Assembly: GCA_019634385.1 (NCBI GenBank)
Contig: JAHQVK010000123.1
Span: 1,142-65,141, forward strand
Reading direction: 5' to 3'
Length of the DNA: 64,000 nucleotides
Origin: Myxococcales bacterium
GTDB taxonomy: Bacteria; Myxococcota; Kuafuiibacteriia; Kuafuiibacteriales; Kuafuiibacteriaceae
Below, piece by piece: positions 1 through 31,677 of the stretch (position 1 is its first letter; the number at the start of each line of letters is the position of its first letter). Under the pieces are notes generated by a model. It saw nothing but the letters and a program-made list of their open reading frames with translations. It ran no database searches and was not told the origin of the DNA. The translations under genes were made by a program, and so were the position numbers.

Positions 1-121
1 TGAGGCGGCGCCACGCGAATGGGGCGCCTTCCGGGGGCAGGTTCGTTGGGATGATGATGCGTTTGCGCCTCTAAGCGACGAAGAAATGGCGCTCTGGGAA
101 GGTTCGGCTCCAGCGAAATGA
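1..121 (+). CDS. 3' end of a type II antitoxin (Phd/VapB-like), truncated at the window edge
   Basis: Frame 2 reads ...DDAFAPLSDEEMALWEGSAPAK* and stops at 119-121. The stop overlaps the VapC start (ATGA at 118-121). The C-terminus is antitoxin-like. Confidence 0.45.
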   Translation, partial: EAAPREWGAFRGQVRWDDDAFAPLSDEEMALWEGSAPAK

Positions 122-519
122 CGCCGGTTCTTCTCGATACTCACGTGTTCGTTTGGGCTCTGGCCGAGCCCGCGCGCGTACCGGAGTCGGCCTGGACTCT
201 GCTTCGAGATCCCAGACAGCCTCTTCGCCTAAGCCTTGCGAGCGCTTGGGAGCTTGCCATCAAAGCGAGCGCGGGTCGGATTCACCTTCCGATGCGCGCA
301 GCGGACTTCATCGCGGAAGGCTGTCAGCGAACCGGGGTCGACGTGCTAGGAGTCGAGCTAAGCCACATCGCCGAGCTCGAGCGACTTCCTTGGCATCACC
401 GCGATCCATTCGATAGACTCATCATCGCGCAGGCTCGCGTGGAATCGTTTCGCCTGCTATCGTTCGATGGCGAGTTATCTTGCTACGAATTCAAGAGGGC
501 TCAGGAAACGGATTACTGA
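118..519 (+). CDS. vapC: PIN-domain toxin (VapC family)
   Basis: The ORF opens MTPVLLDTHVFVWAL.. with conserved acidic residues (D at the start, ...SFD near the C-terminus). Its start is coupled to the upstream antitoxin stop by a 4-nt overlap. Confidence 0.75.
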   Translation: MTPVLLDTHVFVWALAEPARVPESAWTLLRDPRQPLRLSLASAWELAIKASAGRIHLPMRAADFIAEGCQRTGVDVLGVELSHIAELERLPWHHRDPFDRLIIAQARVESFRLLSFDGELSCYEFKRAQETDY

Positions 520-645
520 GGCCGTCTTCTTATCTCCGCTGATTGAGGTCTCAGGAAACCCGGAGCGATTCACTCGCTTGCATCCCGCTCATGGAGCAGG
601 CGCGTCTCAGGTTCGAGCCATGGGTAGAACGCCACTTCGACCACT

Positions 646-1704
646 TCAGCCCTCCTCGAAGTAGTCTGAGTCCGGATGGCAGAGCTTGATGGTGCGCTCG
701 ACCGAGACGCCGACCTCGAACTCGACCATGAGCCGGGTGAGCTGCTCGCCGTCGACGAGGACCAGGCTGTCGGATGCGTTGCTTGCGAACTCGACCGCCT
801 CCTTCGTGAATCGCGAGGTCGTGATGAACACTCCCTTGGTCGCGCGGCGGCTGGCGAGGGCGCCGAAGAAGCCCTGGATTTCTGGACGACCGACCGGCCC
901 CTGCCAGCGCTTCGCCTGGATATAGACCTTCTCCAGGCCGAGCCGGTCGAGGGTGATGATGCCATCAATACCGCCGTCACCGCTCTTGCCGGTGTGCTCG
1001 ATAGTGGACGACGTGCCGTAGCCCATCGCCTGCAGCACATCGAGGACGAGCCGCTCGAAGAAATCAGGGCTACCTCGACCGATGGTGTCCAGAAGCTCGG
1101 CCGCGAGTGATGCGTTCAGCTCGGCCACGGCCTGGTCGATGCGTTCTGAGGGCGCTAGCTTCGGTGCGGGTTCCCAGGGGCCGATCGGCTTCGGTGTGGG
1201 TGACCCGTTCGGTTTCGCGGTCGAATCGTCGGCGACCACGGCGAGGTCGCGGACCTCGTCCTCGGTCATGGGGCGGCTGTCGAGCTCGCGAGCTCGGTCC
1301 AGACCGACCGGAGTCAGCCTCCAGAAACCCCGCCGGACGCTTGTGCTCAGACCCGCCCGCTTGAGGCGGTCATGCGCCCAGCCGACGCGGTTGTCGAACA
1401 CGGCTTGGCGGCCGCTCGCGAGGCGCTCTTTGAGGTCTTCGGGCCTGACCGCAATCGCCTCGGCCACCCGGGCTCGGGCTTCGCGGCTCATGAGCCCGTC
1501 TGGACTCCCGCCAAGTGCTCGGAGGAGGGGCTCGATGAGTTGGTCGTAGGTTGGAATCGCCAACGGCTCGAACAGTAGTCGTCCAGACGCTCGTGTCCAC
1601 ACTTGTCGTCCAGAACCCTGAGATCCTACCAGCGGAATCGGGGATTTCCGACGGACGGCGATGCCGCTAGGTCCAGACTCTGGATGCCCGACTTCTCTGC
1701 CCAC
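646..1704 (-). CDS. mrr: Mrr-type restriction endonuclease (Mrr_N winged helix + Mrr catalytic domain); true start probably internal
   Basis: N-terminal ..IPTYDQLIEPLLRAL.. and catalytic-core ..GGIDGIITLDRLGLEKVYIQAKRW.. are hallmarks of Mrr. The long N-terminal extension of the ORF lacks a convincing start. Confidence 0.75.
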   Translation of the reverse strand: MGREVGHPESGPSGIAVRRKSPIPLVGSQGSGRQVWTRASGRLLFEPLAIPTYDQLIEPLLRALGGSPDGLMSREARARVAEAIAVRPEDLKERLASGRQAVFDNRVGWAHDRLKRAGLSTSVRRGFWRLTPVGLDRARELDSRPMTEDEVRDLAVVADDSTAKPNGSPTPKPIGPWEPAPKLAPSERIDQAVAELNASLAAELLDTIGRGSPDFFERLVLDVLQAMGYGTSSTIEHTGKSGDGGIDGIITLDRLGLEKVYIQAKRWQGPVGRPEIQGFFGALASRRATKGVFITTSRFTKEAVEFASNASDSLVLVDGEQLTRLMVEFEVGVSVERTIKLCHPDSDYFEEG

Positions 1705-1904
1705 CCGTCGAAGCGCCGCGTTCTAGAGGCGTTGTCCAGAGTCGACCTCGCCGCGATCGTCGATGCCTACAGCCTCGAGGCCGACAAGCGTTCGAAGACC
1801 GCGATTCTGGACGCTCTGGACACCCTCCGCTCCAGATCGCGGTCAGCGGGCTCTCGACTTCGACTCGGTCGCGCGCGAGCCCACGAATCCAGACCTCCTC
1901 GAGC

Positions 1905-2636
1905 GTGACGGTTCGAAGCGGTTGGCAACGTTCGTCCTTGAGTCCGTCCGAGGATTGCGCGAAGGAAGCGGGCGATGTGCTCGCTCATCGCCTCCCTCTT
2001 CGCGGCGCGACCCTCTTCAACTTTCACGTCCGGGCTCAGATGCTGGACGTGGGGGTAGAGCTGTCCATGCCGTGTATGGACGCGGTGCCGCGCTGGGAGG
2101 CCCTGTGGAGGAAGTACGGGAAGAAGTGGCTCCGGCTCGTTGTGGCTCCGGCTCGTTGTGGCTGCGGTGAGGGACGACGAGGAGCTCTGCACGGACCTGC
2201 CGTGGACCCCGGACCGGGTGGTCTGCGATACCGAGGGCGCCCTCTCCGAGCGTTTCGGAGCGAAGGAACTGCCCTCCGCTTTTCTGTGGAACTGGCAGGG
2301 CCACCTGCTCGCGAGCAGCTGCGCCTCGGCCTGCTTTTGGCGGAGAGCCATTGCCGCACCTGCAACGTATACCCATGGGGGAAGGCAAAGCCTACGGCTC
2401 GTCGAGCTAGATTCGACCAAGACTGGAGTGCAGGCACGAAGAAGGTGAAGTCGCATCCAGTGGGAGCAAATGGTCTATACGATATGGCGGGCAACGTCTG
2501 GGAGTTGGTGGAAGATTGCTACGATAGTGACATTTACAACAGTCGTAGTGGCACAGTGACAAGCAACCCCCATCTCCAGCCCAAAGGCTACTCAACTTCC
2601 CGAGGTATCAAACCACTCGTTCCGGCGCTCGTATGA
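1905..2636 (+). pseudogene. Fragmented thioredoxin-like (TlpA/redoxin) + FGE-sulfatase (SUMF1) domain gene, disrupted by frameshifts
   Basis: Frame 0 carries ..SMPCMDAVPRWEALWRKYGKKWLRLVV.., a redoxin CxxC region. After a 16-bp tandem duplication the reading continues in frame 1 (ORF 2140..2448: VVAAVRDDEEL...ELPSAFLWNWQGHLL). Frame 0 later carries ..YPWGKA...HPVGANGLYDMAGNVWELVEDCY.., the C-terminal end of an FGE domain. Only fragments of each domain are present. Confidence 0.45.
2126..2163. repeat. Perfect 16-bp tandem duplication (gtggctccggctcgtt x2 plus a partial third copy) inside the broken redoxin gene
   Basis: Read directly from the sequence at 2126-2141 and 2142-2157; gtggct follows. 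The unit length of 16 is not a multiple of 3, so it shifts the frame. Confidence 0.9.
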
Positions 2637-2847
2637 AAATCTACTTCTGCAATCAGGGGTAGATGGCCTGCTGGTACGACGATCCTTAGCCGGATGGCGA
2701 ACGGACACGGCCCAAGCCATTTACGCAGGAATTGATCCATCCGAGCGAATCGAAGCGGCAAAACGGCTTGATCGGCTACTCATTGGAAAACGGTTACCCG
2801 AAACGGTTACCCGAGAGAAAGCCGCCGACATAACCGTTGATGACTAA
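2560..2847 (+). pseudogene. C-terminal remnant of a tyrosine recombinase/integrase (no start codon, about 95 codons)
   Basis: Frame 1 reads ..NHSFRRSYENLLLQSGVDGLLVRRSLAGWRTDTAQAIYAGIDPSERIEAAKRL..*. This matches the box II / C-terminal pattern of integrases (HxLRHTfat.LLesGVDl..vqelLGH.....t..YthV.perlreA). It stops at 2845-2847, 36 nt from the tRNA-Gly 3' end. Confidence 0.4.
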
Positions 2848-2882
2848 ATCGTATATGTCTAGAATTAGAGGTAAAATGGTTA

Positions 2883-2955
2883 AGCGGGAAACGGGACTCG
2901 AACCCGCGACGTCAACCTTGGGAAGGTTGCACTCTACCAACTGAGTTATTCCCGC
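2883..2955 (-). tRNA. tRNA-Gly (anticodon CCC)
   Basis: The reverse complement reads GCGGGAATAACTCAGTTGGTAGAGTGCAACCTTCCCAAGGTTGACGTCGCGGGTTCGAGTCCCGTTTCCCGCT. It has a 7-bp acceptor stem, D and T arms (GGTTCGAGTCC), and an anticodon loop cTTCCCAAg. Confidence 0.85.
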
Positions 2956-3067
2956 GAAGAGCCGTAACTTCCTGTAAACTGTGAGCTCTTGTCAAGAGCC
3001 TACAAGCGGTGACTCCGATTCTTGTGGGAGTTTGGTGGGTTGTACGGTTATACCTGGGGCAACGAGG

Positions 3068-4729
3068 CTACTGAAATGATAAGTCAAAGTCGATTCGGTT
3101 GAGGGCGGTGGCTTCCTCGGTGAGATCTGCCTGGGTGAGTGGGTGCTCATCTAGCCAGCCCTCTGGGAAGGAGAGGCTGAGATGACCTTCTTTAGCTTCT
3201 GTCACCTGGGGTTGGGGGCTTCCATTGTCTCCGCGAGCACGGTTTAGGAGGATAGCTAGACGGAGGAGCACGGTCAGCTCTTGGGCAAATAAACGAAGGT
3301 CAATAGGGAGGCGCTCGTAGGGCTTGAGGCGAAACCTTCGTCTTTGGTTCTCCAGAAGGGTGGCGAGCATGTTCTTTTGCTCTCTCGAGAAACCGGGCAT
3401 TTCGGAGTGACGTACCAAGTATCCGGCATGCTTGTGGTGGCCCGAATAGGAAATTGATAAGCCAATTTCGTGAAGTAAAGATGCCCAGCGTAGAAATTTC
3501 TCACTACGCTGTTGATGCATATCCCATAGGCTTAGAACTTGGTTTAAGAGTTCTAAGGCCGTCTTTTCTACCTTGCCAGCATGTTCCAAATCTACCTTAT
3601 ATCGTTTGGCAAAGACGTTGACCGTTTCGTCATGGACGCCACCTTTGCTTGCTCTACCAAGAAGTTCGTAGGCGACACCCTCTCGTAGGGCCCCCTCAGA
3701 TACATCCATGACCGAAATATCTAAGATAGTAAATGCGGCGCGTACAATGGCTACGCCACCAGCGAAGACTGGGGCGCGATCGGAATCAAGTCCCTGAAGC
3801 TGTATCTTATCTGCTCGCTTGGTTTGGATAAGTTCAGTTTTTAGTTTGTTGAGACCCTCTAAGGTTATGCCTTCGTGGCTCCAATTATGTGCTCTGAGGA
3901 CAGAGTCTACCGCCTTGAGTGTTCCGGATGAACCAGTGGCTCGCGTCCATCCTAGTCTTTTGTATCGACCGCTGATGGATAATATTTCTCGTTGAGCGGC
4001 TAACTCTGCTGCGCGGAAACTTTTCTCGGTGATACGGCCCTTGGGAAAGTAGTTTTTTGTAAAACTAACACACCCCATATATAAACTATCTCGAAGCTTT
4101 GGTGCTAAGCCTTCACCAATAATAAACTCGGTTGATCCTCCACCAATATCCATAACCATGCGAGGGCCCTCATAGTAGCTTGATTGAGATACACCTAAAT
4201 ATATGAGGCGAGCTTCCTCAGGGCCACTAATAATATCGATCTCGTGTCCCAGGGCCTCTTGGGCGCGCTCTAAAAAGTCTTCGCCATTTTTGATCTGGCG
4301 CATGGTATTCGTGCCTACCGCTCGAACTGCTGCGTCGGGAAGGTCTTTGAGACGCTGCGCAAAACGCTCAAGCGCTTCGATGGCTCGCTCTTGAGCTGGT
4401 TCTTCGAGTTCGCGGTCTTTCGTTAGACCAGCGGCCAATCGAACCGGTGATTTGATCTTGTCGAGCACATGCACCCTACCGTCTGCCTCCTCTCGTACCA
4501 AAACCATGTGAAAGCTGTTGGAACCGAGATCGATTCCGGCGACCACGAGTGTATCGTGCCCTTCTTGGGAAGGTTGGTTTGCGTAGAATCCGAACGACCG
4601 AGCTTTCGGATTCGGAAGGGCCAACGAATGTTGCAAGCGAGTCCGAAAGGATCGGAGCCGCGCCCCGCGAATGCGGGGTTGCCATATACCGCCTAGGAGT
4701 TGAGCCCATCCCCGCGTACTCTGAGACAT
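3068..4729 (-). CDS. ppx: Ppx/GppA exopolyphosphatase / guanosine pentaphosphate phosphohydrolase with C-terminal HD domain
   Basis: It carries ..VAGIDLGSNSFHMVLV.. (ASKHA fold, Ppx/GppA N-terminus) and ..HEIGLSISYSGHHKHAGYLVRHSEMPGF.. (HD domain). The start is probably internal to the ORF. Confidence 0.8.
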   Translation of the reverse strand: MSQSTRGWAQLLGGIWQPRIRGARLRSFRTRLQHSLALPNPKARSFGFYANQPSQEGHDTLVVAGIDLGSNSFHMVLVREEADGRVHVLDKIKSPVRLAAGLTKDRELEEPAQERAIEALERFAQRLKDLPDAAVRAVGTNTMRQIKNGEDFLERAQEALGHEIDIISGPEEARLIYLGVSQSSYYEGPRMVMDIGGGSTEFIIGEGLAPKLRDSLYMGCVSFTKNYFPKGRITEKSFRAAELAAQREILSISGRYKRLGWTRATGSSGTLKAVDSVLRAHNWSHEGITLEGLNKLKTELIQTKRADKIQLQGLDSDRAPVFAGGVAIVRAAFTILDISVMDVSEGALREGVAYELLGRASKGGVHDETVNVFAKRYKVDLEHAGKVEKTALELLNQVLSLWDMHQQRSEKFLRWASLLHEIGLSISYSGHHKHAGYLVRHSEMPGFSREQKNMLATLLENQRRRFRLKPYERLPIDLRLFAQELTVLLRLAILLNRARGDNGSPQPQVTEAKEGHLSLSFPEGWLDEHPLTQADLTEEATALNRIDFDLSFQ

Positions 4730-4874
4730 CCGGTGCGGCTTATAGGCGGTTCGTCCCTAGCAAGCCAGCAAAGGTTACAATTTTGGGAAGGTGGTCACAC
4801 GTGAGGATAACGATATTCATCATGAAGGAGAAATGAATACTTTCAGCGAGGTGGTGACTAATTGTTGGGAGATA

Positions 4875-6140
4875 CTACACCTCCTCCAAAATGGACTCGA
4901 GAAGTTGTTGGGCGGGGGTGAAACGAGGGTCAAGTTCGAGGGCCGCTCGAGCTTCAGCGAGTGCTCGTTGTGACATCTTTTGGGCATGTAAGCAGGAAGC
5001 GAGATAGTAACGAACTTGCGCTTCCCGGGGAAAAACAACCTTTGCTTGTTCGAGCAGTGCCCGGGCGGCGACATAGTCTTGTTCTCGGATTCGCAAGAGA
5101 CCGAGATTGACCAGAGCGGCACCGTTTTCGGGTTCGAGTTGAAGTGCCATATGTAGATCTGCCTCAGCTTCCTGGTGAAGGTTGAGTTCCAATGCGGCTG
5201 CACCCCGACTGGCGAGGATAAACGCCTGGCCAGGGGCGAGGGTGTCCATACGGTTAAGCACTGCGCGCTGAGCTTTGAATCGCTGAAGCAATCCAAGGCC
5301 CACGCGGGCTTCTTCAAGTTCGTTGAGGTCCTCAGTTTCCGTACTAAGTACCTCTTTCTCCAGTTCTTCGAGTCGCTCCTGATTTTCTACCTGATCATAA
5401 AGCCGCATCAGCGCGATTCGAGGTGACATCCGGCCGGGGCGAAGCTCGAGCCATCGCTCCGCGATTTCGATCGCCTCGCCGAGTTGACCGCGTTGCTCCA
5501 AGCGTTGGATGGTGTGCTCTGTCCAATAGTCTGAAATCACCGTGATACCCGAAGGCGAAGGCTCTGTTACCTCGGTCTCTCCTTCCGTTGCATCCAGGGG
5601 ATCTCCCTCTTTCCAGGAAGCATAACCGGGCATGTCAGACCAATGATTTGGGGAACGTAATGGATCGGCCACGTCACCAGGCATTTCCCACGCGTCGGAC
5701 AGGGCACCAACCAGTCGACGGAGTGCCTGGCAGGCCCCTTCCGCAGATCCCCAGTGCGCTGTGCGTTCTTCGATCCATTGATCGTGAGCTTCAGTTTCGG
5801 TGAAAGCCTTTCCATCTTCAAAAGCAGCAGCTGGTAAAAGAGACTGCCCACCTACATGCGCGAGTAAGCCCCGGGACCACAGGTCGATACGGAGAAACCG
5901 CTCGACTTCTACCCTTTCAGGCTCGGGCAGACCACGCGACCACGCCTCTCTGGTCACGATGGTTGCGAGGGCATCGCCGCTCACCTCGTGCAGAATTCGA
6001 GCAACAACCGCGAGTCCCAATCCACCCATTGGATCAAGTTCGGTCGACCACAGGGCATACCATGCAGCATCCCGGGTTTCGCCAAGAGCGAGAGCGCGAC
6101 GCGCCCGGCGAGCAGCTTTGAGTGCACGAGCCGCTTTCAT
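4875..6140 (-). CDS. Tetratricopeptide-repeat protein
   Basis: Repeated TPR-like helical motifs occur throughout (..ALQLEPENGAALVNLGLLRIREQDYVAARALLEQA..). There is no other domain. Confidence 0.55.
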   Translation of the reverse strand: MKAARALKAARRARRALALGETRDAAWYALWSTELDPMGGLGLAVVARILHEVSGDALATIVTREAWSRGLPEPERVEVERFLRIDLWSRGLLAHVGGQSLLPAAAFEDGKAFTETEAHDQWIEERTAHWGSAEGACQALRRLVGALSDAWEMPGDVADPLRSPNHWSDMPGYASWKEGDPLDATEGETEVTEPSPSGITVISDYWTEHTIQRLEQRGQLGEAIEIAERWLELRPGRMSPRIALMRLYDQVENQERLEELEKEVLSTETEDLNELEEARVGLGLLQRFKAQRAVLNRMDTLAPGQAFILASRGAAALELNLHQEAEADLHMALQLEPENGAALVNLGLLRIREQDYVAARALLEQAKVVFPREAQVRYYLASCLHAQKMSQRALAEARAALELDPRFTPAQQLLESILEEV

Positions 6141-6179
6141 AAGTTTGACGATGCGCCTGGAGCGAGGCGGCGTCTACAA

Positions 6180-7133
6180 CTAAGACTGACGAGGATCAAA
6201 GGTGCTTATTGTTCTGAGATGCTCAAAAGCTTCCCGCTCTTCTTCGGTAAGTATGGTGGGTACCGCAATTTGAATCTGGACATACAAATCTCCGGGCTCT
6301 CCATCCCGCCCTGGTTTTTGTGGAATACCTTGTCCCCGTAGTCGTAGTTTTTGCCCAGATGAGGTCCCAGCGGGGATTTTGATGCGTAATGAGCCCTTGG
6401 GTAAGGGTATATCGACCTCTGCACCCAGGGCTGCCTCCCATGGGTTTATATGGACACTTGTGCGCACATCTCGACCTTCGACATCAACGCCCTCGGGGGT
6501 TTCTAATCGAAGAATGACGGTGACTTCAGGGTCTTTCAGCTTTAGCCTGTCTCCGTTTTTTGCACCTTTAGGTACTTTTAAACGAAAGTTATGCGCCTGT
6601 TTAAGCCCTCTAGCATTGGGCAGCTCCACGGCCATATCAATCGTGGTACCGGTGTATGCATGTTCTAAGGGGAGGGTGAGATGCACCTCGGGCACCTTTT
6701 TGCTGCGAGGCTTGGGTGGCGGGTTGCTGTTCGTTCGACGTCGGGTGCGTTGGCGTAGAAAATCGTCAAAGGGGTTTCGGAGGTCGTCGCGGCCTACGCG
6801 GATGTCATCAAAGCCAAAGTCGGTAAAGGGAGTACTGCCAGTATCAGCGCGTCGACGCTTCTTGTTGTTTTTTGAGGAGCGTGAGCCCCCGGTCTTGCCA
6901 AACGCATCATACCGAGCGCGTTTTGCCTCGTCGCGAAGTAGTTCATAGGCATCGACAAGCTCGCGAAATCGCTCCTCGGCATCAGCGGCATGGTTGACGT
7001 CGGGATGAAGCTCCCGCGCCTTACGCTTATAAGCCGCCTGAATCTCAGCCTGAGTGGCTGTCGAGTTGACGCCTAGGGTGGTGTAAGGGTCCTTATGCAT
7101 CGTAAGCGCGTGATGGACAGTGCTTGGTGGCAC
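6180..7133 (-). CDS. cbpA: DnaJ-family co-chaperone lacking a zinc finger (CbpA-like: J domain + DnaJ C-terminal domains)
   Basis: The J domain reads DPYTTLGVNSTATQAEIQAAYKRKARELHPDVN and is followed by a basic linker. The C-terminal beta-sandwich motifs (GDLYVQIQIAVP..) match the DnaJ CTD. Confidence 0.75.
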   Translation of the reverse strand: MPPSTVHHALTMHKDPYTTLGVNSTATQAEIQAAYKRKARELHPDVNHAADAEERFRELVDAYELLRDEAKRARYDAFGKTGGSRSSKNNKKRRRADTGSTPFTDFGFDDIRVGRDDLRNPFDDFLRQRTRRRTNSNPPPKPRSKKVPEVHLTLPLEHAYTGTTIDMAVELPNARGLKQAHNFRLKVPKGAKNGDRLKLKDPEVTVILRLETPEGVDVEGRDVRTSVHINPWEAALGAEVDIPLPKGSLRIKIPAGTSSGQKLRLRGQGIPQKPGRDGEPGDLYVQIQIAVPTILTEEEREAFEHLRTISTFDPRQS

Positions 7134-7322
7134 CGTGTTCGACTAACTACTGCAAATGTCGGTCAAAAAAAACTCTGGTGTGAATGAATGCGTATGCTCT
7201 TTGCGGTTAATGGTGTGTGTGACCCTTACTTGTGTTGGGTTTGGCGGAAGTGCTCATCGTCAGGCTATTTACCGAGGATCTTGCACTCTCTGGGATAAAT
7301 TCTAGGGAAACCTCAGGCGACT

Positions 7323-8891
7323 TTGACAGTTTTTCTCGCAGATATTGAAGATGTGTCCATGCTGCGGAAGGCGAGCCTGGACAATGAAAAGCTGAGGGAC
7401 GAAGCACGTTTCATCCTCAAAAATCTTCAGCGTAATGACCTCTTTGGGGATCGGGTCCAAATGTCGGAAGCGGAACGAATCCTTCAATCAGCCCTGAGTC
7501 TCAGCTTTCAGGAGTTCATCAGCTTTCTTACGAAATATGGGTACGTCCGACTCGATTCTGACGGGCAGGTGCTCACAGTGACCCGTGGGGGACGGATGGT
7601 AGTGGACTCCGAAGATGCCGAGTTCTTTTCCAGACTTGCGAGGCACTTTGCTCGGGAGGTCAATGGGGGATCAAGACCTAAGCCCATAGATACTACCAGC
7701 TCGGTGATTCCAAACTACACGGAAGCGGTAAGTTCTGTCCCGCGGACCCGGCGGCCGCTGTCGGTTGATGCCCTTGAAGAGGGTGAGGTTTTAGATAGAC
7801 GGTACCAGCGAGGCGCCGCGATTGGCCGTGGAGCGATCGGTGTAGTGTACCAAGGGCGACATGTGGGTCTTGGGCGCCAGATTGCCATAAAAGAGGCGCA
7901 GACAATCTTTCAGTATGCAAGTTACCTACGTAGGGACGAAATTGTCCAACGCTTGCGTATGGCGGTGGAAACCCATGCGCAACTAGAGCATCCCCACATC
8001 ATACAGATATTGGATCAGAATGATGAACGCGAGCATCCATATTTCGTAATGGAATTGGCTCAGGGGGGGAATCTACGACAGCGACTGACCGCATCGGAGC
8101 AAGATCCACCGAGTCTACCCACGGCGGTTCGAGTGTTGACTCAGGTAGTCTATGCGCTCCAGTACGCGCACAATCTAGGGGTTGTCCACCGAGGGTTAAA
8201 GCCTGAAAACATACTTTTTGACCATTTGGGTAATGTGAAAATGACAGACTTTGGCATGGCTAGTATTCTCGACCAACCGGAAGATATAGGGCCTGCTCCG
8301 CTCTTGGTTGGCGGTAATACGGTGGCTTATTTTGCCCCCGAGCGGTTGCAAGTAGATGTGGTCAGCACCCCGGGTGAAGCAGCGGATATATATGCACTGG
8401 GCATTCTTTTCTATGAGATGCTCACTGGGAAGATTCCTGGACGACGATCACCACTGCCTTCAGAGGTTCGAGATGACGTGCCCGTCGCTTTTGATGAAGT
8501 ATTCGATCGTATGACTCGTGACTCACTGAGTGAACGCTACGCCAACATGAGTGAAGTGCTAGACGGGGTGTATCAAGCTTTTGGTCGTGAGCTACTATTC
8601 GAGTCAGGCTCCATCCTTGCTTGGGCAAAAGACCCAGGCCCCGTTCCATCGGTGCCTCTACAACTGACGGCGCCGGGTGTACCGATTGCGGATGAATTGC
8701 TTGATATGAGCGGTTCGCAGGTCGATTCATTGAATTCAGGACCAATGACCCTAGATATTGGAAGGGGGATGGCAAGCCTAACCTCAGTCGCCATAGTCGA
8801 ATCAGCCTCGGATGTAGCAAAGGATCTGCCTATTGATGTGCGATCTGTAAGTAGACAGGCTCTTCCACCACCTCCCCCCGTGGACAACTAA
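7323..8891 (+). CDS. Hanks-type Ser/Thr protein kinase homologue with HRD changed to HRG (predicted pseudokinase) and an N-terminal domain of unknown function
   Basis: It has a Gly loop IGRGAIGVVY, a VAIK-like IAIKE and DFG (TDFGMA). The catalytic loop reads VVHRGLKPENILFD: the codon is ggg where gat/gac is expected. Confidence 0.75.
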   Translation: MTVFLADIEDVSMLRKASLDNEKLRDEARFILKNLQRNDLFGDRVQMSEAERILQSALSLSFQEFISFLTKYGYVRLDSDGQVLTVTRGGRMVVDSEDAEFFSRLARHFAREVNGGSRPKPIDTTSSVIPNYTEAVSSVPRTRRPLSVDALEEGEVLDRRYQRGAAIGRGAIGVVYQGRHVGLGRQIAIKEAQTIFQYASYLRRDEIVQRLRMAVETHAQLEHPHIIQILDQNDEREHPYFVMELAQGGNLRQRLTASEQDPPSLPTAVRVLTQVVYALQYAHNLGVVHRGLKPENILFDHLGNVKMTDFGMASILDQPEDIGPAPLLVGGNTVAYFAPERLQVDVVSTPGEAADIYALGILFYEMLTGKIPGRRSPLPSEVRDDVPVAFDEVFDRMTRDSLSERYANMSEVLDGVYQAFGRELLFESGSILAWAKDPGPVPSVPLQLTAPGVPIADELLDMSGSQVDSLNSGPMTLDIGRGMASLTSVAIVESASDVAKDLPIDVRSVSRQALPPPPPVDN

Positions 8892-8916
8892 CCAAAGCGT
8901 TTTGATAGACACTAGC

Positions 8917-9104
8917 TAGGGCGTATCTTTAAACTCTGGCTGGGGAGATGACGCCGTATCCCGCGTTTGTGAAGGGTCGGCCCCCAGAGGAAGGGTACTG
9001 GATCTGCCGGGCCGAAGAGCCCGAAGGGTGGCGAAGCCACCGACCCCTCACATATGTGGGAAACAAGTCAGGACGCGGTCCGGAGGTTAAAGACACACCC
9101 TACA
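8917..9104. mobile_element. Family-A palindromic repeat element (MITE-like), copy A1
   Basis: It starts ctagggcgtatctttaaactctgg and ends ccggaggttaaagacacaccctac, so the two ends are inverted repeats of each other. The interior is an imperfect foldback. It is homologous to copies at 12635, 23023, 31383, 40743, 41222 and 48296. Confidence 0.85.
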
Positions 9105-12866: not shown

Positions 12867-14774
12867 TCAGCGACCAACGGAGTACTGTACAACCGGTTTG
12901 TCCTCGGCAAGTTCAACGGTACCTTTGTAGCGTACGTTACCATCTTCAAGCAGTTCGATCGGCAAGGATCCGCTGCCTCGACGTCGCTCGACCGCAACTG
13001 GAGTTGGATGAAGTAGGCGAACACCGTCCAGGCGAACCTCCATACCAGAAGGTACTGACCTAATCAGGACCAGACCTAGTCCTGGTACGGCTTCTCTGCG
13101 GTTGCTAAGCTCCATCTGGCGGAAGATTTTTTCTTGAGATGCTGCTCGAGCTCGTAGGCGGCCGACAACGGCACCAAATATGATGAAGCCAATCAAAATA
13201 CTAGCAACTCGCAAGGCGGCCTGTCGTCGCTGACGGTTTACACCGGACGGTTTTGTGTGACCGGGACGTAGGTGTCTCCGCCCAATGGGCGCCTTGTTGG
13301 TGAGCTGTTTCTTTTTTGGGGGTGCTGGCATGGCCGCAACCTTTGGTGTTGGTTTCTTTTTATCTGCATTTTCTGCTTTTTTGGCTACGGGAACGGGTAC
13401 CTTTTTCTCTTCCGGGGCTTTGGGTGATGCCTTGGCGGGGGGGGGCGGGCTCTTTACTTTGGGCGCGGGTGGCGTTGTGGGTTTCTCAGCCTTGGGGGAT
13501 TTCTCTTCCTTGGCGGGTTTTCCTGGTGTGGGAGCTGGATCTTTCGGTTTTGCCGGTTTAGGTGGGTTTGAGGGGGCGTTGTTGACCGGTTGATCAGCTA
13601 GAGATGGTGCTCGTTTGGTGCTACCGCGCGGTGGCTTTTTTGAGGGTGAACCCTTTGGTGTGAGTGAGGGTTTTTCAGACTCGCCCACACTCTGCATTTC
13701 CAGAACACCTGTACCACCACTTGCCTTAGCTGGAGTTTCGTTAGGCTTGAACAGACCACAAATGAACTCAGTGAGATCTGCACGGGTAACGAGGGCATTT
13801 TCAGCGCGGACCCAGTCCCCTAATATTTTGTCGAGCTCAAGAGCGGTCTGCGGCCGGGTTTTCTTCTCCTTGGAGAGTATCTTGAGGACGATTTTTTCCA
13901 GTGACTTTGGTACATTAGCGTTGACACTTGTCGGGGGGCTAACCTCCGCATTGCGCATAAGATTCAGGGTCGAGAAATCACTTGAGCCGGCAAAACAGCG
14001 CTCACCGACCAACATTTCATAAAGGACAATACCCGTATTGAAGATATCGGAACGTGCATCAACGGGCTGACCGCGTGCTTGTTCTGGGGACATGTACCCA
14101 TATTTGCCCTTGAGAATTCCGACTGCGGTTTGACTAACGATCGACGAGGCCTTCGCGATACCGAAGTCTACAATTTTTACTTCACCAACGTAACTAACCA
14201 GCACATTGTGCGGGCTCATGTCTCGATGCGTGATGTTTAAAGGCGCACCATCTCGGTCTGTTCGGGTGTGTGCGTAGGCTAAACCTTGGCAAACCTCTCT
14301 TGTGATGTGTACTGCGATCTCTGGTGGAATTTCCCTGCCGGCTAGTTGGGTCGCACGAATGACGTCAGACAGGTCTTTGCCTTCCACAAACTCCATGACG
14401 ATGAAGTATTCACCAACATCTGAAACACAAAGATCGTGTACTTGCACGATATTGGCACAATTCAGCGATGCGGCTAACTTCGCCTCATTGATGAACATCG
14501 TGATGAACGACTCGTCTTCGGTGAGGTGCGGCAAAATCTTTTTGACGCACACTTCCTTTTCGAAGCCCTGGAGGCCAGTGGTCCTCGCTCGATACACTTC
14601 GGCCATTCCACCCTTGGCGATCATTTCGAGAATTTCGAACTTCTTGACACTCAACTTCCTAAGTATCGGTAGAGATGCGTTTCGGGACAAGCATTCTGAA
14701 CCCTCTTCCCCAATCAGATGTTGCCGTCTAGCATACGCGTGTCGGCCATGACGGAATCTACGCCGAGCGAGCAA
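12867..14774 (-). CDS. Membrane-anchored Ser/Thr protein kinase (kinase domain, Pro/Lys-rich linker, TM helix, C-terminal PEGA-like domain)
   Basis: It has a Gly loop IAKGGMAEVY, VCVKK and DFGIA. The catalytic loop is HRDMSPHN. The low-complexity linker reads PKPAKPKDPAPTPGKPAKEEKSPKAEK... and the TM helix reads ALRVASILIGFIIFGAVVG. Start codon uncertain. Confidence 0.85.
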   Translation of the reverse strand: MLARRRFRHGRHAYARRQHLIGEEGSECLSRNASLPILRKLSVKKFEILEMIAKGGMAEVYRARTTGLQGFEKEVCVKKILPHLTEDESFITMFINEAKLAASLNCANIVQVHDLCVSDVGEYFIVMEFVEGKDLSDVIRATQLAGREIPPEIAVHITREVCQGLAYAHTRTDRDGAPLNITHRDMSPHNVLVSYVGEVKIVDFGIAKASSIVSQTAVGILKGKYGYMSPEQARGQPVDARSDIFNTGIVLYEMLVGERCFAGSSDFSTLNLMRNAEVSPPTSVNANVPKSLEKIVLKILSKEKKTRPQTALELDKILGDWVRAENALVTRADLTEFICGLFKPNETPAKASGGTGVLEMQSVGESEKPSLTPKGSPSKKPPRGSTKRAPSLADQPVNNAPSNPPKPAKPKDPAPTPGKPAKEEKSPKAEKPTTPPAPKVKSPPPPAKASPKAPEEKKVPVPVAKKAENADKKKPTPKVAAMPAPPKKKQLTNKAPIGRRHLRPGHTKPSGVNRQRRQAALRVASILIGFIIFGAVVGRLRARAASQEKIFRQMELSNRREAVPGLGLVLIRSVPSGMEVRLDGVRLLHPTPVAVERRRGSGSLPIELLEDGNVRYKGTVELAEDKPVVQYSVGR

Positions 14775-17700
14775 GAGATCGCTGCCTTACGAGCACAAGT
14801 GAACGCCGATACGAGATCGGAGGCGTTTGTTGATTTGGCTAAAGCGTTAAACGCGCAGGGCAAACACGAGGAAGCGGCCCAGATCGCTAACCAGGGTCTT
14901 TTGTCTCATCCTGACTTGGTTGAGGGAAGGATAGTCCTGGCGATTGCCGAATCCCGGCGAGGTCGAGTCAAAGAGGCGTTAGAGCAGATTCAGCGCGCGC
15001 TTCTTATCGATCAGAATAATGCGGTCGCGCTGGGGCTCATGGGAGAAATACTGCTCGATAGGGGCCTCGCTAAACGAGCAGCACAGTTCCTAGCGCACGC
15101 GGTGAAACTTGAGTCTGGCAACGAAGGGTTTAGAGAGCTTCTGGCCCGCGCCCGCCAAGCTATGGCGGATGTCAGTAAAGATGAAACTGGTGGTCCTCGG
15201 GTAGTAGCTAACAAGGTCAACCCACTGGGTTTGAGCTCCATCCCTAGTGAGGATAGCCCTTGGCCCTTGGAGGAAGCACAAACGGTGTTCGCCGCCAAAG
15301 CTGCGGATTCGGCATCGAATGGTCCTGCCGATGTGCCAGTTGCGCACCTTGCTGCCATACCAGAGGTTAGCAAGCAAGTGGTCGGTGGCGCCCAACAGGG
15401 GCTAGCCTCGCTGGTGTCAGGGGATGAAATTGCTGTTGATCACGCTGATGACGAACCGACGAAGTTTACGTCGGCGGTTCCAAAAAGGCGAGGGAAACTG
15501 GGAGGGAGCGCAGCTGAACTCTCGTTGATGATCAGCACGGGCAATGATCGAAGTAAGTCTAGCGTGCCCCCCCCGCAGGCTCCAAGTAAGCTGGCCGCGG
15601 AAGGATCAGGGCCAGCGAAGCCCAAAGCAAAGCCCAATGGGGTATCGGCTGGGCCTAAAACCCCTTCAGGTGAAGCGGGTGTCGGAAAGCCTCCTTCCCC
15701 AGCGAAGGGTCGGCCAGCGGTTGCAAAGGCGCCTGCAGTCCCGAGCAAGTCAAAGGCCGCAAAGGTCCCGCCACCCCCTCCGAAGCCAGAAGTTTCAGAT
15801 ACTTCTGCGTCTCCAAGCAAAGCAGGAGAGGCAAAGACGTCTGCAGGCAAAGCAGGCGCGGCAAAGACGTCTGCAGGCAAAGCAGGCGCGGCAAAAACGC
15901 CTGCAGGCAAAGCAGGCGCGGCAAAAACGCCTGCAGGCAAAGCAGGCGCGGCAAAGACGCCTGCAGGCAAAGCAGGCGCGGCAAAAACGCCTCTTGATCC
16001 TAGTAAATCGGGAGGGGCAAAAGAGCTCCCCAGTCCCGGCAAGGCGGCGGCTGCGAAACCGCCAGCAGCTTCTGCCAAGCCTGGGATTGCGGAGGTGCCA
16101 CCGGTCTCGAAAGCCCCCCCGCCGACACCGAGTAAACCTCCGGCTCCGACAGGAGATGAGGCTAAATCAACCCCAAAAAATAGTAGCGCTAAACCTAGTG
16201 CGGCTCCTGGACCCAAAATGAATGCTGTTGCTCAAGAAAATAAGCGCTCTCAAGACGAACCAGCCTCCGTAAATGGATTTGGACCAGTTGCTACGCGAAT
16301 GATCGATGACGCGCTCTTCGCGATCTTAGGTACCCCGCGGGAGGAGCTGGATAAACAACCGGCTCCAGCGGCTCCCGCAGAGGCGGCGCCGCTCGCTGGA
16401 GGGGCGCATATACTCAAGCCTCGAGTAGTGAGAACCAGCGCTAAACTGGGGTTTTGGGCACGGGTTGCGGGGGGGGTAGTCTTGTGTTCAAGCGCATTCG
16501 GTTTGGGGTATGCGGTTGCATTAGCTCCGGGTGCAGCCTCACCGGAGGTTGTCCGGGAAGAGATTAAAGGGGTTGCTGCAGAACTTGAAAGAGGCGGCTT
16601 GGCAGCCCTCCGAACCGCTGAGGAGCGAGTTCAGGTGCTGATTGAGTCGAATCCCAGCATTTCTCCCCTAATGAATGGCGTTCTAGCTGAGACCTTAGCG
16701 CGACGCTATGCGCGCTTCGGGCGCTCTGAGGAGTTGAGAACGAAGGCTATCGATGCACTTGAAGCCACAGGAGACGGGTACGTTAGTTTGGAGAAGACTG
16801 TGGCCCAAGTCCTGCTCTCTACGAGTACACAAGACCTTGCGCAGCTGGACAAGCAACTAGAGCTGTCGCTGAAAAGCTATGCCGACTCGCCCAAGGCGTG
16901 GGTGGCTCGGGCGGAGATCGCCCACCGTTCTGGAGACGCGGATGCAGCTATTTCTCATCTAACACAAGCTCGATCCATTCATCCCCAGCATCGGCAGACG
17001 CTCCTTGAAACCGCTCGATGGTTAGCGAGAGAGGGCGCGTTCGCATCCAGCTTAGAAACTTATGCCTTGCTGCAAAGTAACTCCGACCTCGATGTGGAGG
17101 TGGCGATCGAGCGATATCTGTTGGGATGGTCTACCGACGCTGACTCGGCCCATTCTGAGGCGGTTACTTTGCTAGCTGGGTTGGTACGGGAGACGATACC
17201 AGAAGTAGCACCAGACGAAGTCGGCCGAGCTGCGTTTGCTTTTGCTCTTGGGCACTTGTGGGAAGGTCGGATTGAAGAGGCGAATGCAAGCTTGCGCCAA
17301 GCCTCTCGGGCTTATCAACAAAGTGCAGCCTATCAGCAGATGATTGGACGCGTGTTTCTCGCGCTGGGGGAAGTTAAAGGGGCGGAGGCGTGCTTTACAA
17401 GAGCGACTGATGTGGAGCCGGATAGTGCCGAGTTGTGGATGGATAAAGCCCGTGCTCGATTTGCTCGGGCGCTCAAACTCCGACCGAGCCCAACAGCACT
17501 CGAGCGTCAGCTAGCGCGTGTTAGGGCCAACAAGTCCAAGGAGCGGTTGATGCTTCCCCTTGGGGAGGTGAGGGTACGCCCAACAGAGTTTGAGCTCGTG
17601 GAGGTTACGCTCGATCCGGCAGTCTTTAGGGAAGAAGACTATCTGCCGCTAAAAGAAGCCACTGCCCAAGAGGTATCGTTTGAGCAGGCTATGAAATCGC

Positions 17701-18491
17701 TGGTTGCATCAGCGGTGGCGCAGAAGGCCGTTGATTCGGGTGATCTCTCTAAGGCGAGACGTGTTGTAAAGCGGATGGCTGACAGAGATAATCAGATGTC
17801 ATCGATCGCGATAGCTAAGGGGCAATTGCTGCTGGCTGAGGGCAATTCGGATCAGGCGGTTCAACTCTTGGAATCGGCGGTAGATGGTGAGTCGTCGAGT
17901 ATATCTACCCTGGTGGCTTTGGCGCGAGCCCAAGTGGCGGCGGGCAATCTTAGGGGGGCCTTTGATGCCTACGAGCGGTTTTTTGATGCGGGCGGAAAGT
18001 CGACGGTTGCTCGCTTAGAATATGCTCGGCTGCAGAATGATAAAGGTGATCTTGAAGATGCGTTGGAGACCCTGGACCTTCTAGATACGGAGCAGCCAGA
18101 TAATGTTGCTAGCATGGTGCTACGTGCGGAATTGCATCTCGAACAAGATAAATATATTAAAGCACAAGCAACCATTCAGAAGGCGATAGAAGTGGATGCT
18201 AGGCTAGTAACTGGCCGTGCCCCTGAAGGGATTGATGAGCTGTCCCCCGAGTTTATTATGCAGATGGGTCGCATTGTCTTAAAAGATGATCGAAAGAAGG
18301 GCATGCGTTTGCTGAGGAACGCTGTTGAGCGCCCCGGGGCTCCGCCTAGTGTGCACTTCTTCTTAGGCAAGGCGTTGATGGCAAAGCGCAAAACTCGGCG
18401 AGCTGGGCGGCGATCGCTTCAGAAATATTTGGCTCTTGAACCAAGAGGATCTCATGCCGTTGAGGCTAAAAGACTAAGGCGACGAAGATGA
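14718..18491 (+). CDS. Large TPR-repeat protein (1257 aa) with a Pro/Ala/Lys-rich low-complexity region and a 10-aa tandem repeat
   Basis: There are many TPR units at both ends (..LGLMGEILLDRGLAKRAAQFLAHAVKLE.., ..AQATIQKAIEVDARL..). The central region is (AGKAGAAKTP)n. The true start may be MTEST at 14748. Confidence 0.65.
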   Translation: MLPSSIRVSAMTESTPSEQEIAALRAQVNADTRSEAFVDLAKALNAQGKHEEAAQIANQGLLSHPDLVEGRIVLAIAESRRGRVKEALEQIQRALLIDQNNAVALGLMGEILLDRGLAKRAAQFLAHAVKLESGNEGFRELLARARQAMADVSKDETGGPRVVANKVNPLGLSSIPSEDSPWPLEEAQTVFAAKAADSASNGPADVPVAHLAAIPEVSKQVVGGAQQGLASLVSGDEIAVDHADDEPTKFTSAVPKRRGKLGGSAAELSLMISTGNDRSKSSVPPPQAPSKLAAEGSGPAKPKAKPNGVSAGPKTPSGEAGVGKPPSPAKGRPAVAKAPAVPSKSKAAKVPPPPPKPEVSDTSASPSKAGEAKTSAGKAGAAKTSAGKAGAAKTPAGKAGAAKTPAGKAGAAKTPAGKAGAAKTPLDPSKSGGAKELPSPGKAAAAKPPAASAKPGIAEVPPVSKAPPPTPSKPPAPTGDEAKSTPKNSSAKPSAAPGPKMNAVAQENKRSQDEPASVNGFGPVATRMIDDALFAILGTPREELDKQPAPAAPAEAAPLAGGAHILKPRVVRTSAKLGFWARVAGGVVLCSSAFGLGYAVALAPGAASPEVVREEIKGVAAELERGGLAALRTAEERVQVLIESNPSISPLMNGVLAETLARRYARFGRSEELRTKAIDALEATGDGYVSLEKTVAQVLLSTSTQDLAQLDKQLELSLKSYADSPKAWVARAEIAHRSGDADAAISHLTQARSIHPQHRQTLLETARWLAREGAFASSLETYALLQSNSDLDVEVAIERYLLGWSTDADSAHSEAVTLLAGLVRETIPEVAPDEVGRAAFAFALGHLWEGRIEEANASLRQASRAYQQSAAYQQMIGRVFLALGEVKGAEACFTRATDVEPDSAELWMDKARARFARALKLRPSPTALERQLARVRANKSKERLMLPLGEVRVRPTEFELVEVTLDPAVFREEDYLPLKEATAQEVSFEQAMKSLVASAVAQKAVDSGDLSKARRVVKRMADRDNQMSSIAIAKGQLLLAEGNSDQAVQLLESAVDGESSSISTLVALARAQVAAGNLRGAFDAYERFFDAGGKSTVARLEYARLQNDKGDLEDALETLDLLDTEQPDNVASMVLRAELHLEQDKYIKAQATIQKAIEVDARLVTGRAPEGIDELSPEFIMQMGRIVLKDDRKKGMRLLRNAVERPGAPPSVHFFLGKALMAKRKTRRAGRRSLQKYLALEPRGSHAVEAKRLRRRR
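15811..15990. repeat. 30-bp tandem repeat, 5 perfect/near-perfect units plus one degenerate unit (ctgcaggcaaagcaggcgcggcaaaRacgY)
   Basis: Units at 15841, 15871, 15901, 15931 and 15961 with a degenerate copy at 15811. They encode (S/P)AGKAGAAKT and differ only at wobble positions. Confidence 0.9.
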
Positions 18492-31382: not shown

Positions 31383-31570
31383 CTAGGGCGTCTCTTTAAG
31401 CTCCGGCCCGCGTATTGACTTGTTTCCTGCGTTTGTGAGGGGTTGGTGGCTTCGCCGCCCTCTCGGTCCCCTCGGCCGGGTACATCCAGTACCTTCCCTC
31501 CGAGGCTGACTCCTCACAAACGTGGGCTTTGGCGTCATCTCCCCAGCCGGAGGGTAAAGACACGCCCTAG
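31383..31570. mobile_element. Family-A element, copy A5 (orientation as A3)
   Basis: ctagggcgtctctttaagctccggcccgcgt ... ccggagggtaaagacacgccctag. It is preceded by an extra ctag. Confidence 0.85.
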
Positions 31571-31677
31571 CGGATTGGTTTTGGCCACTTTGCGGTTCGC
31601 ACAAACTTATTTTGGCTACTTCATCTCTTGATGAGTAAGTCATTCCATGTGTTTGGGGGTCGCGGTTTTGGGGTTGC

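Follow-up and report, generated by a model that had tools for sequence, protein, structure and literature searches.

We analyzed a 64,000-nt stretch (the window) of contig JAHQVK010000123.1 from a Myxococcales metagenome-assembled genome (MAG; GCA_019634385.1), in which positions 1-2960 run from the cut end of a toxin-antitoxin (TA) locus to a tRNA-Gly(CCC) gene. Between these two points lie an intact vapC toxin gene, an intact mrr restriction endonuclease gene, gene debris that includes a thioredoxin-like pseudogene and a fragment of an FGE-sulfatase domain, and the C-terminal end of a tyrosine integrase (Table 1). To the right of the tRNA, the genes are housekeeping-like chromosome genes, encoding Ppx/GppA, a TPR protein, a DnaJ-like protein, Ser/Thr kinases, an aminotransferase, and an aldolase. 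We consider it probable that the region is the composite, immobilised, and decaying right end of a genomic island at the tRNA-Gly(CCC) site of a Myxococcota host with a guanine plus cytosine (GC) content of about 53%.

Table 1. Features at the left end of the window and the evidence for each (aa, amino acids; ORF, open reading frame)
Feature	Position (nt)	Strand	Evidence or remark
Phd/YefM-family antitoxin gene (vapB-like), 3' end, 39 codons plus stop	2-121	+	Likeness to contig L082; ATGA overlap
vapC, intact, 133-aa PIN-domain toxin (MBX2812257.1)	118-519	+	Pfam PIN, E = 1e-11, profile 1-115 of 120
mrr, intact, 305-aa type IV modification-dependent restriction endonuclease (MBX2812258.1)	646-1563	-	TTG start (MAIPTYDQ...)
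74-aa ORF, hypothetical KTR25_10635 (MBX2812259.1)	1684-1908	+	Coding-like bias at 1681-1830 alone, then Arg-rich tail
Secreted thioredoxin-like (TlpA-like) pseudogene, high GC, four lesions	1975-2372	+	HMMER family search; tblastn lesion map
Exact 16-nt tandem duplication (GTGGCTCCGGCTCGTT x2), second lesion of the pseudogene	2126-2157		Reading frame 3 to 1
GC change point	2360-2407		Right edge of high-GC block, at the junction of thioredoxin-like remnant and FGE fragment
FGE-sulfatase (SUMF1/EgtB/PvdO-type) internal fragment, ~70 codons, host-like GC	2370-2579	+	Pfam, E = 1e-8, profile 131-202 of 255
Tyrosine recombinase/integrase C-terminal fragment, ~84 codons	2596-2847	+	PHROGs; NCBIfam XerD; tblastn; alignment A2
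Exact 13-nt tandem duplication (AAACGGTTACCCG x2)	2788-2813		Frameshift in last integrase codons
tRNA-Gly(CCC), intact, without encoded CCA	2883-2955	-	ARAGORN; Rfam RF00005, 66.2 bits, model 1-71 of 71

The left block is set apart from the rest of the window by its composition. Positions 1-2372 have a GC content of 64.0%, compared to 51.6% at 2373-2882 and 52.8% across the remaining window. No other 2372-nt stretch in the window exceeds 58.3%, and the excess amounts to more than 6 standard deviations for windows of equal length. The accessory character of this block exceeds chance, and the foreign composition of the left region is supported, in agreement with an earlier note on this DNA that had described the left 2.9 kb as accessory. 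The note had also proposed looking for a GC-skew or codon-usage break. We found that a sharp GC break exists, but it is sited about 480 nt to the left of the tRNA-Gly gene and does not coincide with the tRNA; when the first 8 kb were divided into two segments by maximum likelihood, the log-likelihood ratio was 41.6 at 2363-2407. GC at third codon positions (GC3) was 0.81 in mrr and 0.86 in the thioredoxin-like remnant, 0.58 in the FGE fragment, 0.48 in the integrase tail, and about 0.5 in host genes. The FGE fragment and the integrase tail are thus host-like in GC, and given the position of the break, the block that holds vapBC and mrr does not directly abut the attachment (att) side.

The fragment that lies next to the tRNA gene was identified as an integrase by several weak but concordant matches. 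It matched three PHROGs integrase models (phrog_1, 1.1e-4; phrog_216, 5.4e-4; phrog_7685, 0.077) and NCBIfam XerD (0.046, profile 231-275 of 290), and tblastn searches of phages and plasmids returned 74 and 70 weak matches; where the matches listed fell on annotated features, these were almost always integrases. At the two loci that were inspected, the match ran as far as the final integrase codons. The box II sequence HSFRR falls on HxxR, a GW pair on the second His, and a Tyr on the nucleophile, and in alignment A2, which pairs the fragment with integrases from Gordonia phage Jace and Streptococcus phage LYGO9, H19, R22, and Y55 are invariant and W45 lies opposite His-II. In Cre-type recombinases, Trp is a known alternative at the second His position. 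The catalytic domain is incomplete, lacking the box I Arg and the Lys, and there is no core-binding domain; homology begins at about 2596, with the FGE fragment upstream in another frame. Since about three quarters of the integrase, its N-terminal part, is missing, we regard the island as immobile.

The last integrase codons are themselves damaged. The original stop is probably the TAA at 2831-2833, at which the ORF would end if the 13-nt duplication were absent, and the present stop at 2845-2847 lies 35 nt from the 3' end of the tRNA, which faces the integrase remnant. The earlier note had given this distance as 36 nt; the adjacency itself stands, as do the convergent tRNA-Gly(CCC) gene and the tyrosine-recombinase C-terminus pointing at its 3' end, which is the usual geometry of integration into a tRNA gene. 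ARAGORN and Rfam found no RNA gene in the window besides this tRNA. Together with the 16-nt duplication at 2126, the 13-nt duplication at 2788 is one of the sole two exact tandem duplications of at least 10 nt in the 64 kb with a unit that is not a multiple of 3, and the confinement of both to this stretch fits relaxed selection here.

Between mrr and the integrase tail, gene debris spans 1564-2600, and a frame plot shows its coding-like GC3 switching from one frame to another. In the left part of the debris, the 74-aa ORF has a frame 1 GC3 of 0.83-0.87 that is limited to roughly its first 50 codons, and this ORF is probably the N-terminal fragment of some gene. No significant match was found for the ORF or for 1564-1975 in Pfam, NCBIfam, PHROGs, PADLOC, plasmid tblastn, or local tblastx/blastx searches. 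A Pfam hit to UBA_2 in this region (0.025) was below the cut-off and was rejected. The N-terminus of the ORF may resemble SAP-like leaders of helicase or restriction proteins, but this likeness was given no weight.

The right part of the high-GC debris derives from a gene for a secreted thioredoxin-like protein. When queried directly in Pfam and NCBIfam, this piece had no match, and its identity came via the domains of proteins found in an exhaustive HMMER search with the ORF at 2140-2448, which returned 331 matches at E <= 1e-3 (best match P0124, 66% identity, E = 7.9e-22). The N-terminal thioredoxin/TlpA-like module of these proteins, about 260 aa long, is conserved across the family, and the C-termini that follow it vary (for example PEGA, FGE-sulfatase, Sel1, Lcl_C, or OmpA). 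The named members, including the best matches, are Myxococcota MAG proteins. The remnant is 63-70% identical to the N-terminal module of P0124-P0126, and its start may be placed at the ATG at 1975.

A lesion map made by tblastn against P0124, P0126, and P0129 revealed four lesions in this remnant. The first, at ~2072, deleted about 16 codons and with them the first CXXC Cys (the window reads ...VELSMPCM), which belongs to a WCxPC sequence that is nearly invariant across the family. The second is the 16-nt duplication, which repeats family residues 71-79 in two frames. In the third, residues 128-230 of P0124 (about 93 codons) are deleted at ~2316, with an additional change of frame, and the fourth is a truncation, where homology stops at ~2372-2396. 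Neither an intact CXXC nor a continuous reading frame is left. Unlike its relatives, the window copy therefore combines a destroyed CXXC, two frame changes, the ~93-codon deletion, and the loss of the C-terminus, and we conclude that it is a pseudogene; it is the frameshifted gene that had been suspected behind the overlapping spurious ORFs.

An intact, host-like paralogue, P0129 (MBX2814337.1; positions 174-1883 of contig L087 from sequencing run SRR12681089), carries a PEGA C-terminus and has a GC content of 51% and a GC3 of 0.49. It likely belongs to the same MAG, as judged by the same organism label, an accession number 2,079 away, and a contig from the same sequencing run. Since the pseudogene has a GC3 of 0.86 compared to 0.49 in this paralogue, it has the look of a xenologue that came from a relative with high GC, and the host apparently retains a low-GC copy of its own as the foreign high-GC one decays.

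The FGE fragment begins where the high-GC debris ends. In addition to the Pfam match, which covers just the middle of the profile and leaves the domain incomplete, NCBIfam gave weak matches to GldK, PvdO, and GldJ. The public annotation places an intact 243-aa "SUMF1/EgtB/PvdO family nonheme iron enzyme" here (MBX2812260.1, 1905-2636, + strand). We rejected this gene model as a chimeric ORF over the debris of two genes, since it reads through the damaged and partly out-of-frame thioredoxin-like pseudogene and then through the 70-codon FGE fragment of different GC. The earlier note had read this region as one broken redoxin/FGE gene. Both pieces are indeed present and damaged, but they are probably two genes and not one, because the drop in GC3 from 0.86 to 0.58 coincides with a non-homologous junction. 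No paralogues of the fragments were found elsewhere in the window.

The TA pair at the window's left edge has the features of a VapBC system with an antitoxin of the Phd/YefM fold. The antitoxin stop and the vapC start overlap by 4 nt (ATGA at 118-121), which places the coupled antitoxin immediately 5' of the toxin, and D7, E45, D96, D99, and D117 of the PIN domain are invariant across 18 homologues including the window protein (alignment A3), so that all conserved acidic residues are present. Homologues of VapC with 128-132 aa cover it over 96-99%. Compared by eye, the antitoxin tail EAAPREWGAFRGQVRWDDDAFAPLSDEEMALWEGSAPAK closely resembles the C-terminus of an 83-aa PF02604 antitoxin in contig L082; this PhdYeFM antitoxin precedes a VapC that is 83% identical to the one in the window, and an 83-aa PF02604 protein also precedes the 83%-identical VapC of Logan contig L083. 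The difference from complete systems is that only the 3' part of the antitoxin gene lies in the window, whose edge truncates it, with about 130 nt expected further left. These observations agree with the earlier reading of a PIN-domain toxin behind the 3' end of an antitoxin gene. In VapBC systems, a labile antitoxin restrains a PIN RNase, and loss of the locus is toxic. By homology, the VapC encoded here is predicted to be a PIN RNase toxin that is neutralised by its antitoxin.

At the nucleotide level, positions 4-500 of the window are 80% identical to both L082 and L083. The cassette of about 500 bp sits in unrelated contexts, next to a Uma2 gene in L082 and L083 and additionally near a Fic gene in L082. 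The presence of vapBC in other contexts (L082 and L081) indicates that it moves on its own. The copy in L081 (GCA_020357715.1, JAHLSW010034092.1; positions 4968-5388) is decayed, with about 90% nucleotide identity to window positions 22-173 and 249-526: the 5' part of its antitoxin gene is gone, the vapC start is lost, and about 75 nt are deleted. It adjoins a gene for an FG-GAP protein, and GC drops from ~62% to ~50% just beyond.

The mrr gene is likewise intact. Its product matched the Pfam domains Mrr_N (6.9e-22) and Mrr_cat (9.8e-38) as well as the PADLOC model mREase_IV (E = 4.5e-86, residues 1-303 of 305 on profile positions 1-315 of 317). Like the E. coli Mrr family, it is a full-length protein with an Mrr_N winged helix and an Mrr_cat PD-(D/E)xK domain encoded by a solitary gene; no methyltransferase domain was found among the ORFs of 1-3000, and Mrr is solitary within that range. 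On the other hand, its identity to the nearest relatives, which are all uncharacterised, is just 54-66%. Enzymes of this family cleave incoming DNA that is methylated or otherwise modified and require no methylase partner, and the window protein is predicted from its domains to cut modified incoming DNA. The named best matches belong to Sandaracinus, Polyangiales, and Polyangiaceae (54-56% identity). The closest homologue (P0002, 66%) adjoins HsdM and Cas6 genes, and neither vapBC nor the thioredoxin gene is present there.

While the assignment to the Mrr type made in the earlier note holds, the gene, which lies on the minus strand, starts at 1563 and not at 1704. The 352-aa ORF (646-1704) was rejected as over-extended, since homologues have ~305 aa (the best homologues listed mostly 296-310 aa, with 99-100% coverage) and the NCBI product has 305 aa. 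The start codon is TTG at 1561-1563 in the window and GTG at 535-537 of L080, a Logan contig that is 99.87% identical, and the occurrence of two start codons at the same site supports the 305-aa model over the 352-aa model.

Parts of this anatomy were recovered in a second assembly. The Logan assembly of run SRR12681089 is separate from the MAG and may or may not share reads with it. Its contig L080 matches window positions 611-2098 at 99.87% and shows the CXXC deletion as well, and L086 reproduces 2912-8955 at 99.90%, which confirms the host flank together with some of the pseudogene lesions. The Logan contigs end at 611, between vapC and mrr; at 2098, which is 28 nt before the 16-nt duplication; and at 2912, which is nucleotide 44 of the tRNA-Gly. 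Contig breaks can reflect branch points that arise from strain polymorphism or shared k-mers, and the present ones might point to alleles without the island or to alternative junctions within the population. In DNA similarity searches against plasmids, 1-2960 gave short Mrr and tRNA matches only, and the high-GC block was not seen again as a unit in any contig examined.

Taken together, we think that this region is probably a composite remnant with two layers. From the observed anatomy, composition, gene identities, and lesions, we reconstruct the order of events and the donor as follows. The first layer (2373-2882, host-like in GC) would be the leftover of an element that a tyrosine integrase had inserted at the tRNA gene's 3' end, and of which the last ~84 integrase codons and the 70-codon FGE-domain fragment have survived. 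The second layer (1 to ~2372 and extending left beyond the window, 64% GC) would be a later or less ameliorated block, possibly donated by a high-GC, Polyangia-like myxobacterium, which became fused to the first layer at a non-homologous junction. The Polyangia-type best matches of Mrr and the Myxococcota matches of the thioredoxin-like remnant point to a foreign origin of this second layer. Within it, the gene for the thioredoxin-like lipoprotein has been ruined by deletions and out-of-frame tandem duplications, and so has at least one further gene. The four lesions of the thioredoxin-like remnant, the truncated FGE and integrase genes, and the two local duplications argue that the decay is real and local. 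Decay would have spared the addiction module and the solitary Mrr, both of which are self-sufficient: in its addiction role, vapBC would penalise deletion of the DNA, since the PIN RNase is freed once the labile antitoxin is lost.

Several points weigh against this interpretation. Among the contigs compared, the MAG contig is the only one to span 2098-2912, and the physical link between the high-GC block and the tRNA side depends on it. We infer that vapBC and mrr were kept by selection solely from their intactness amid debris. The distal (left) boundary of the proposed island falls outside the window, and a second copy of the tRNA 3' end (AGCGGGAAACGGGACTCGAACCC...) was not found in the 64 kb with up to 3 mismatches. 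Scans with Ppx of GTDB species representatives and JGI metagenomes returned nothing above 49% identity, so that no empty site was on view; a tRNA-Gly gene was adjacent to ppx at 0 of the 46 scanned loci. The homology of the integrase tail is weak, with no match in Pfam, PDB, or a word search of 5.8 billion proteins. Finally, fusions of thioredoxin and FGE domains are natural in the thioredoxin-like family (13 of 80 members), and the two pieces may therefore descend from one mosaic gene.

This last point is central to the idea that a single mosaic island reaches from the window start to the tRNA after one integration, with the thioredoxin and FGE pieces as the two ends of one fusion gene that has lost its middle. 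The combination of thioredoxin-like and FGE-sulfatase domains is the second commonest architecture of the family (e.g., P0126 and P0189), the two pieces lie on the same strand in the correct order, and integrase genes of islands often differ from their cargo in GC. We nevertheless find this explanation unlikely, since GC3 falls exactly at the junction, which links family residue ~250 to FGE profile position ~131 and offers no simple continuity within a gene, and since the FGE piece is at most 44% identical to the FGE domain of the family, compared to 52-70% for the thioredoxin part.

The abrupt GC step at the left edge of the window could also reflect a chimera of assembly or binning, in which the first ~2.37 kb come from another high-GC myxobacterium in the sample and were mis-joined near a contig end. 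The window lies at most 4.6 kb from the end of its 68,567-bp contig, and the junction falls in the gap between the same-run Logan contigs that end at 2098 and 2912. However, de Bruijn chimeras form at shared k-mers, while the junction here is non-homologous and lies between gene fragments. Both sides are independently degraded, which is not the product of a mis-join, and the two same-run contigs L080 and L086 both deviate from the window by ~0.1%, which fits one population. We therefore judge a chimera to be quite improbable.

The autonomy of the vapBC cassette, the different neighborhood of the closest Mrr, and the weak homology of the integrase tail would each suit an origin without any island, where vapBC, mrr, and the debris arrived piecemeal in a variable region, as selfish cassettes or by illegitimate recombination, next to a chance or unrelated integrase tail. 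This seems very unlikely, because three PHROGs integrase models, XerD, and dozens of tblastn matches all point to integrases, the two inspected loci match at the C-terminus with catalytic residues aligned, and the tail lies 35-49 nt from the tRNA 3' end and points at it, which is the canonical geometry. We give slimmer chances still, taken jointly, to two further ideas: that the window edge cuts a larger defense island with more defense genes to the left, in which vapBC and mrr survive as a functional pair with the TA system as an abortive-infection back-up to Mrr, and the related one that the thioredoxin/FGE junction was left behind when illegitimate recombination, facilitated by homology, brought high-GC myxobacterial DNA into a mid-GC myxobacterial lineage.

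As a probable composite island remnant, the locus resembles tRNA-associated genomic islands and integrative elements with tyrosine integrases (P4/lambda-type geometry), including anchored islands whose integrases have decayed. The shared features are an integrase 3' end that converges on the tRNA 3' end, foreign composition, defense and addiction cargo, an inactivated integrase, and accumulated pseudogenes. It differs in that no more than ~84 integrase codons remain, that the compositional boundary lies 480 nt off the tRNA (implying at least two layers), and that neither an att repeat nor a left end is in the window. We regard it as an ordinary bacterial island remnant that raises no new mechanistic question and matters mostly for annotation, where MBX2812260.1 is corrected to an ORF across the debris of two genes and the 352-aa Mrr is recognized as a product of gene callers stretching the gene. 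It would also document the horizontal acquisition of high-GC, Polyangia-like DNA by an uncultured Myxococcota lineage of ~53% GC, and it follows the textbook pattern of decay, with the TA system and Mrr outlasting the integrase and the metabolic cargo.

Some minor features lie in the host flank. Two genes for eukaryote-like Ser/Thr protein kinases, at 7323-8891 (+ strand) and 12867-14774 (- strand), lie within 12 kb of the tRNA, and they fit the Myxococcota label despite the unusually low GC content of ~53%. A secondary BLAST match of L086 revealed a 41-nt repeat, where 8915-8955 and 31531-31571 are 90% identical. A 1257-aa ORF (14718-18491, + strand) contains an in-frame 30-nt tandem repeat at 15817-15992, with 5.9 copies, 95% matches, and the unit GCAAAGCAGGCGCGGCAAAAACGCCTGCAG.

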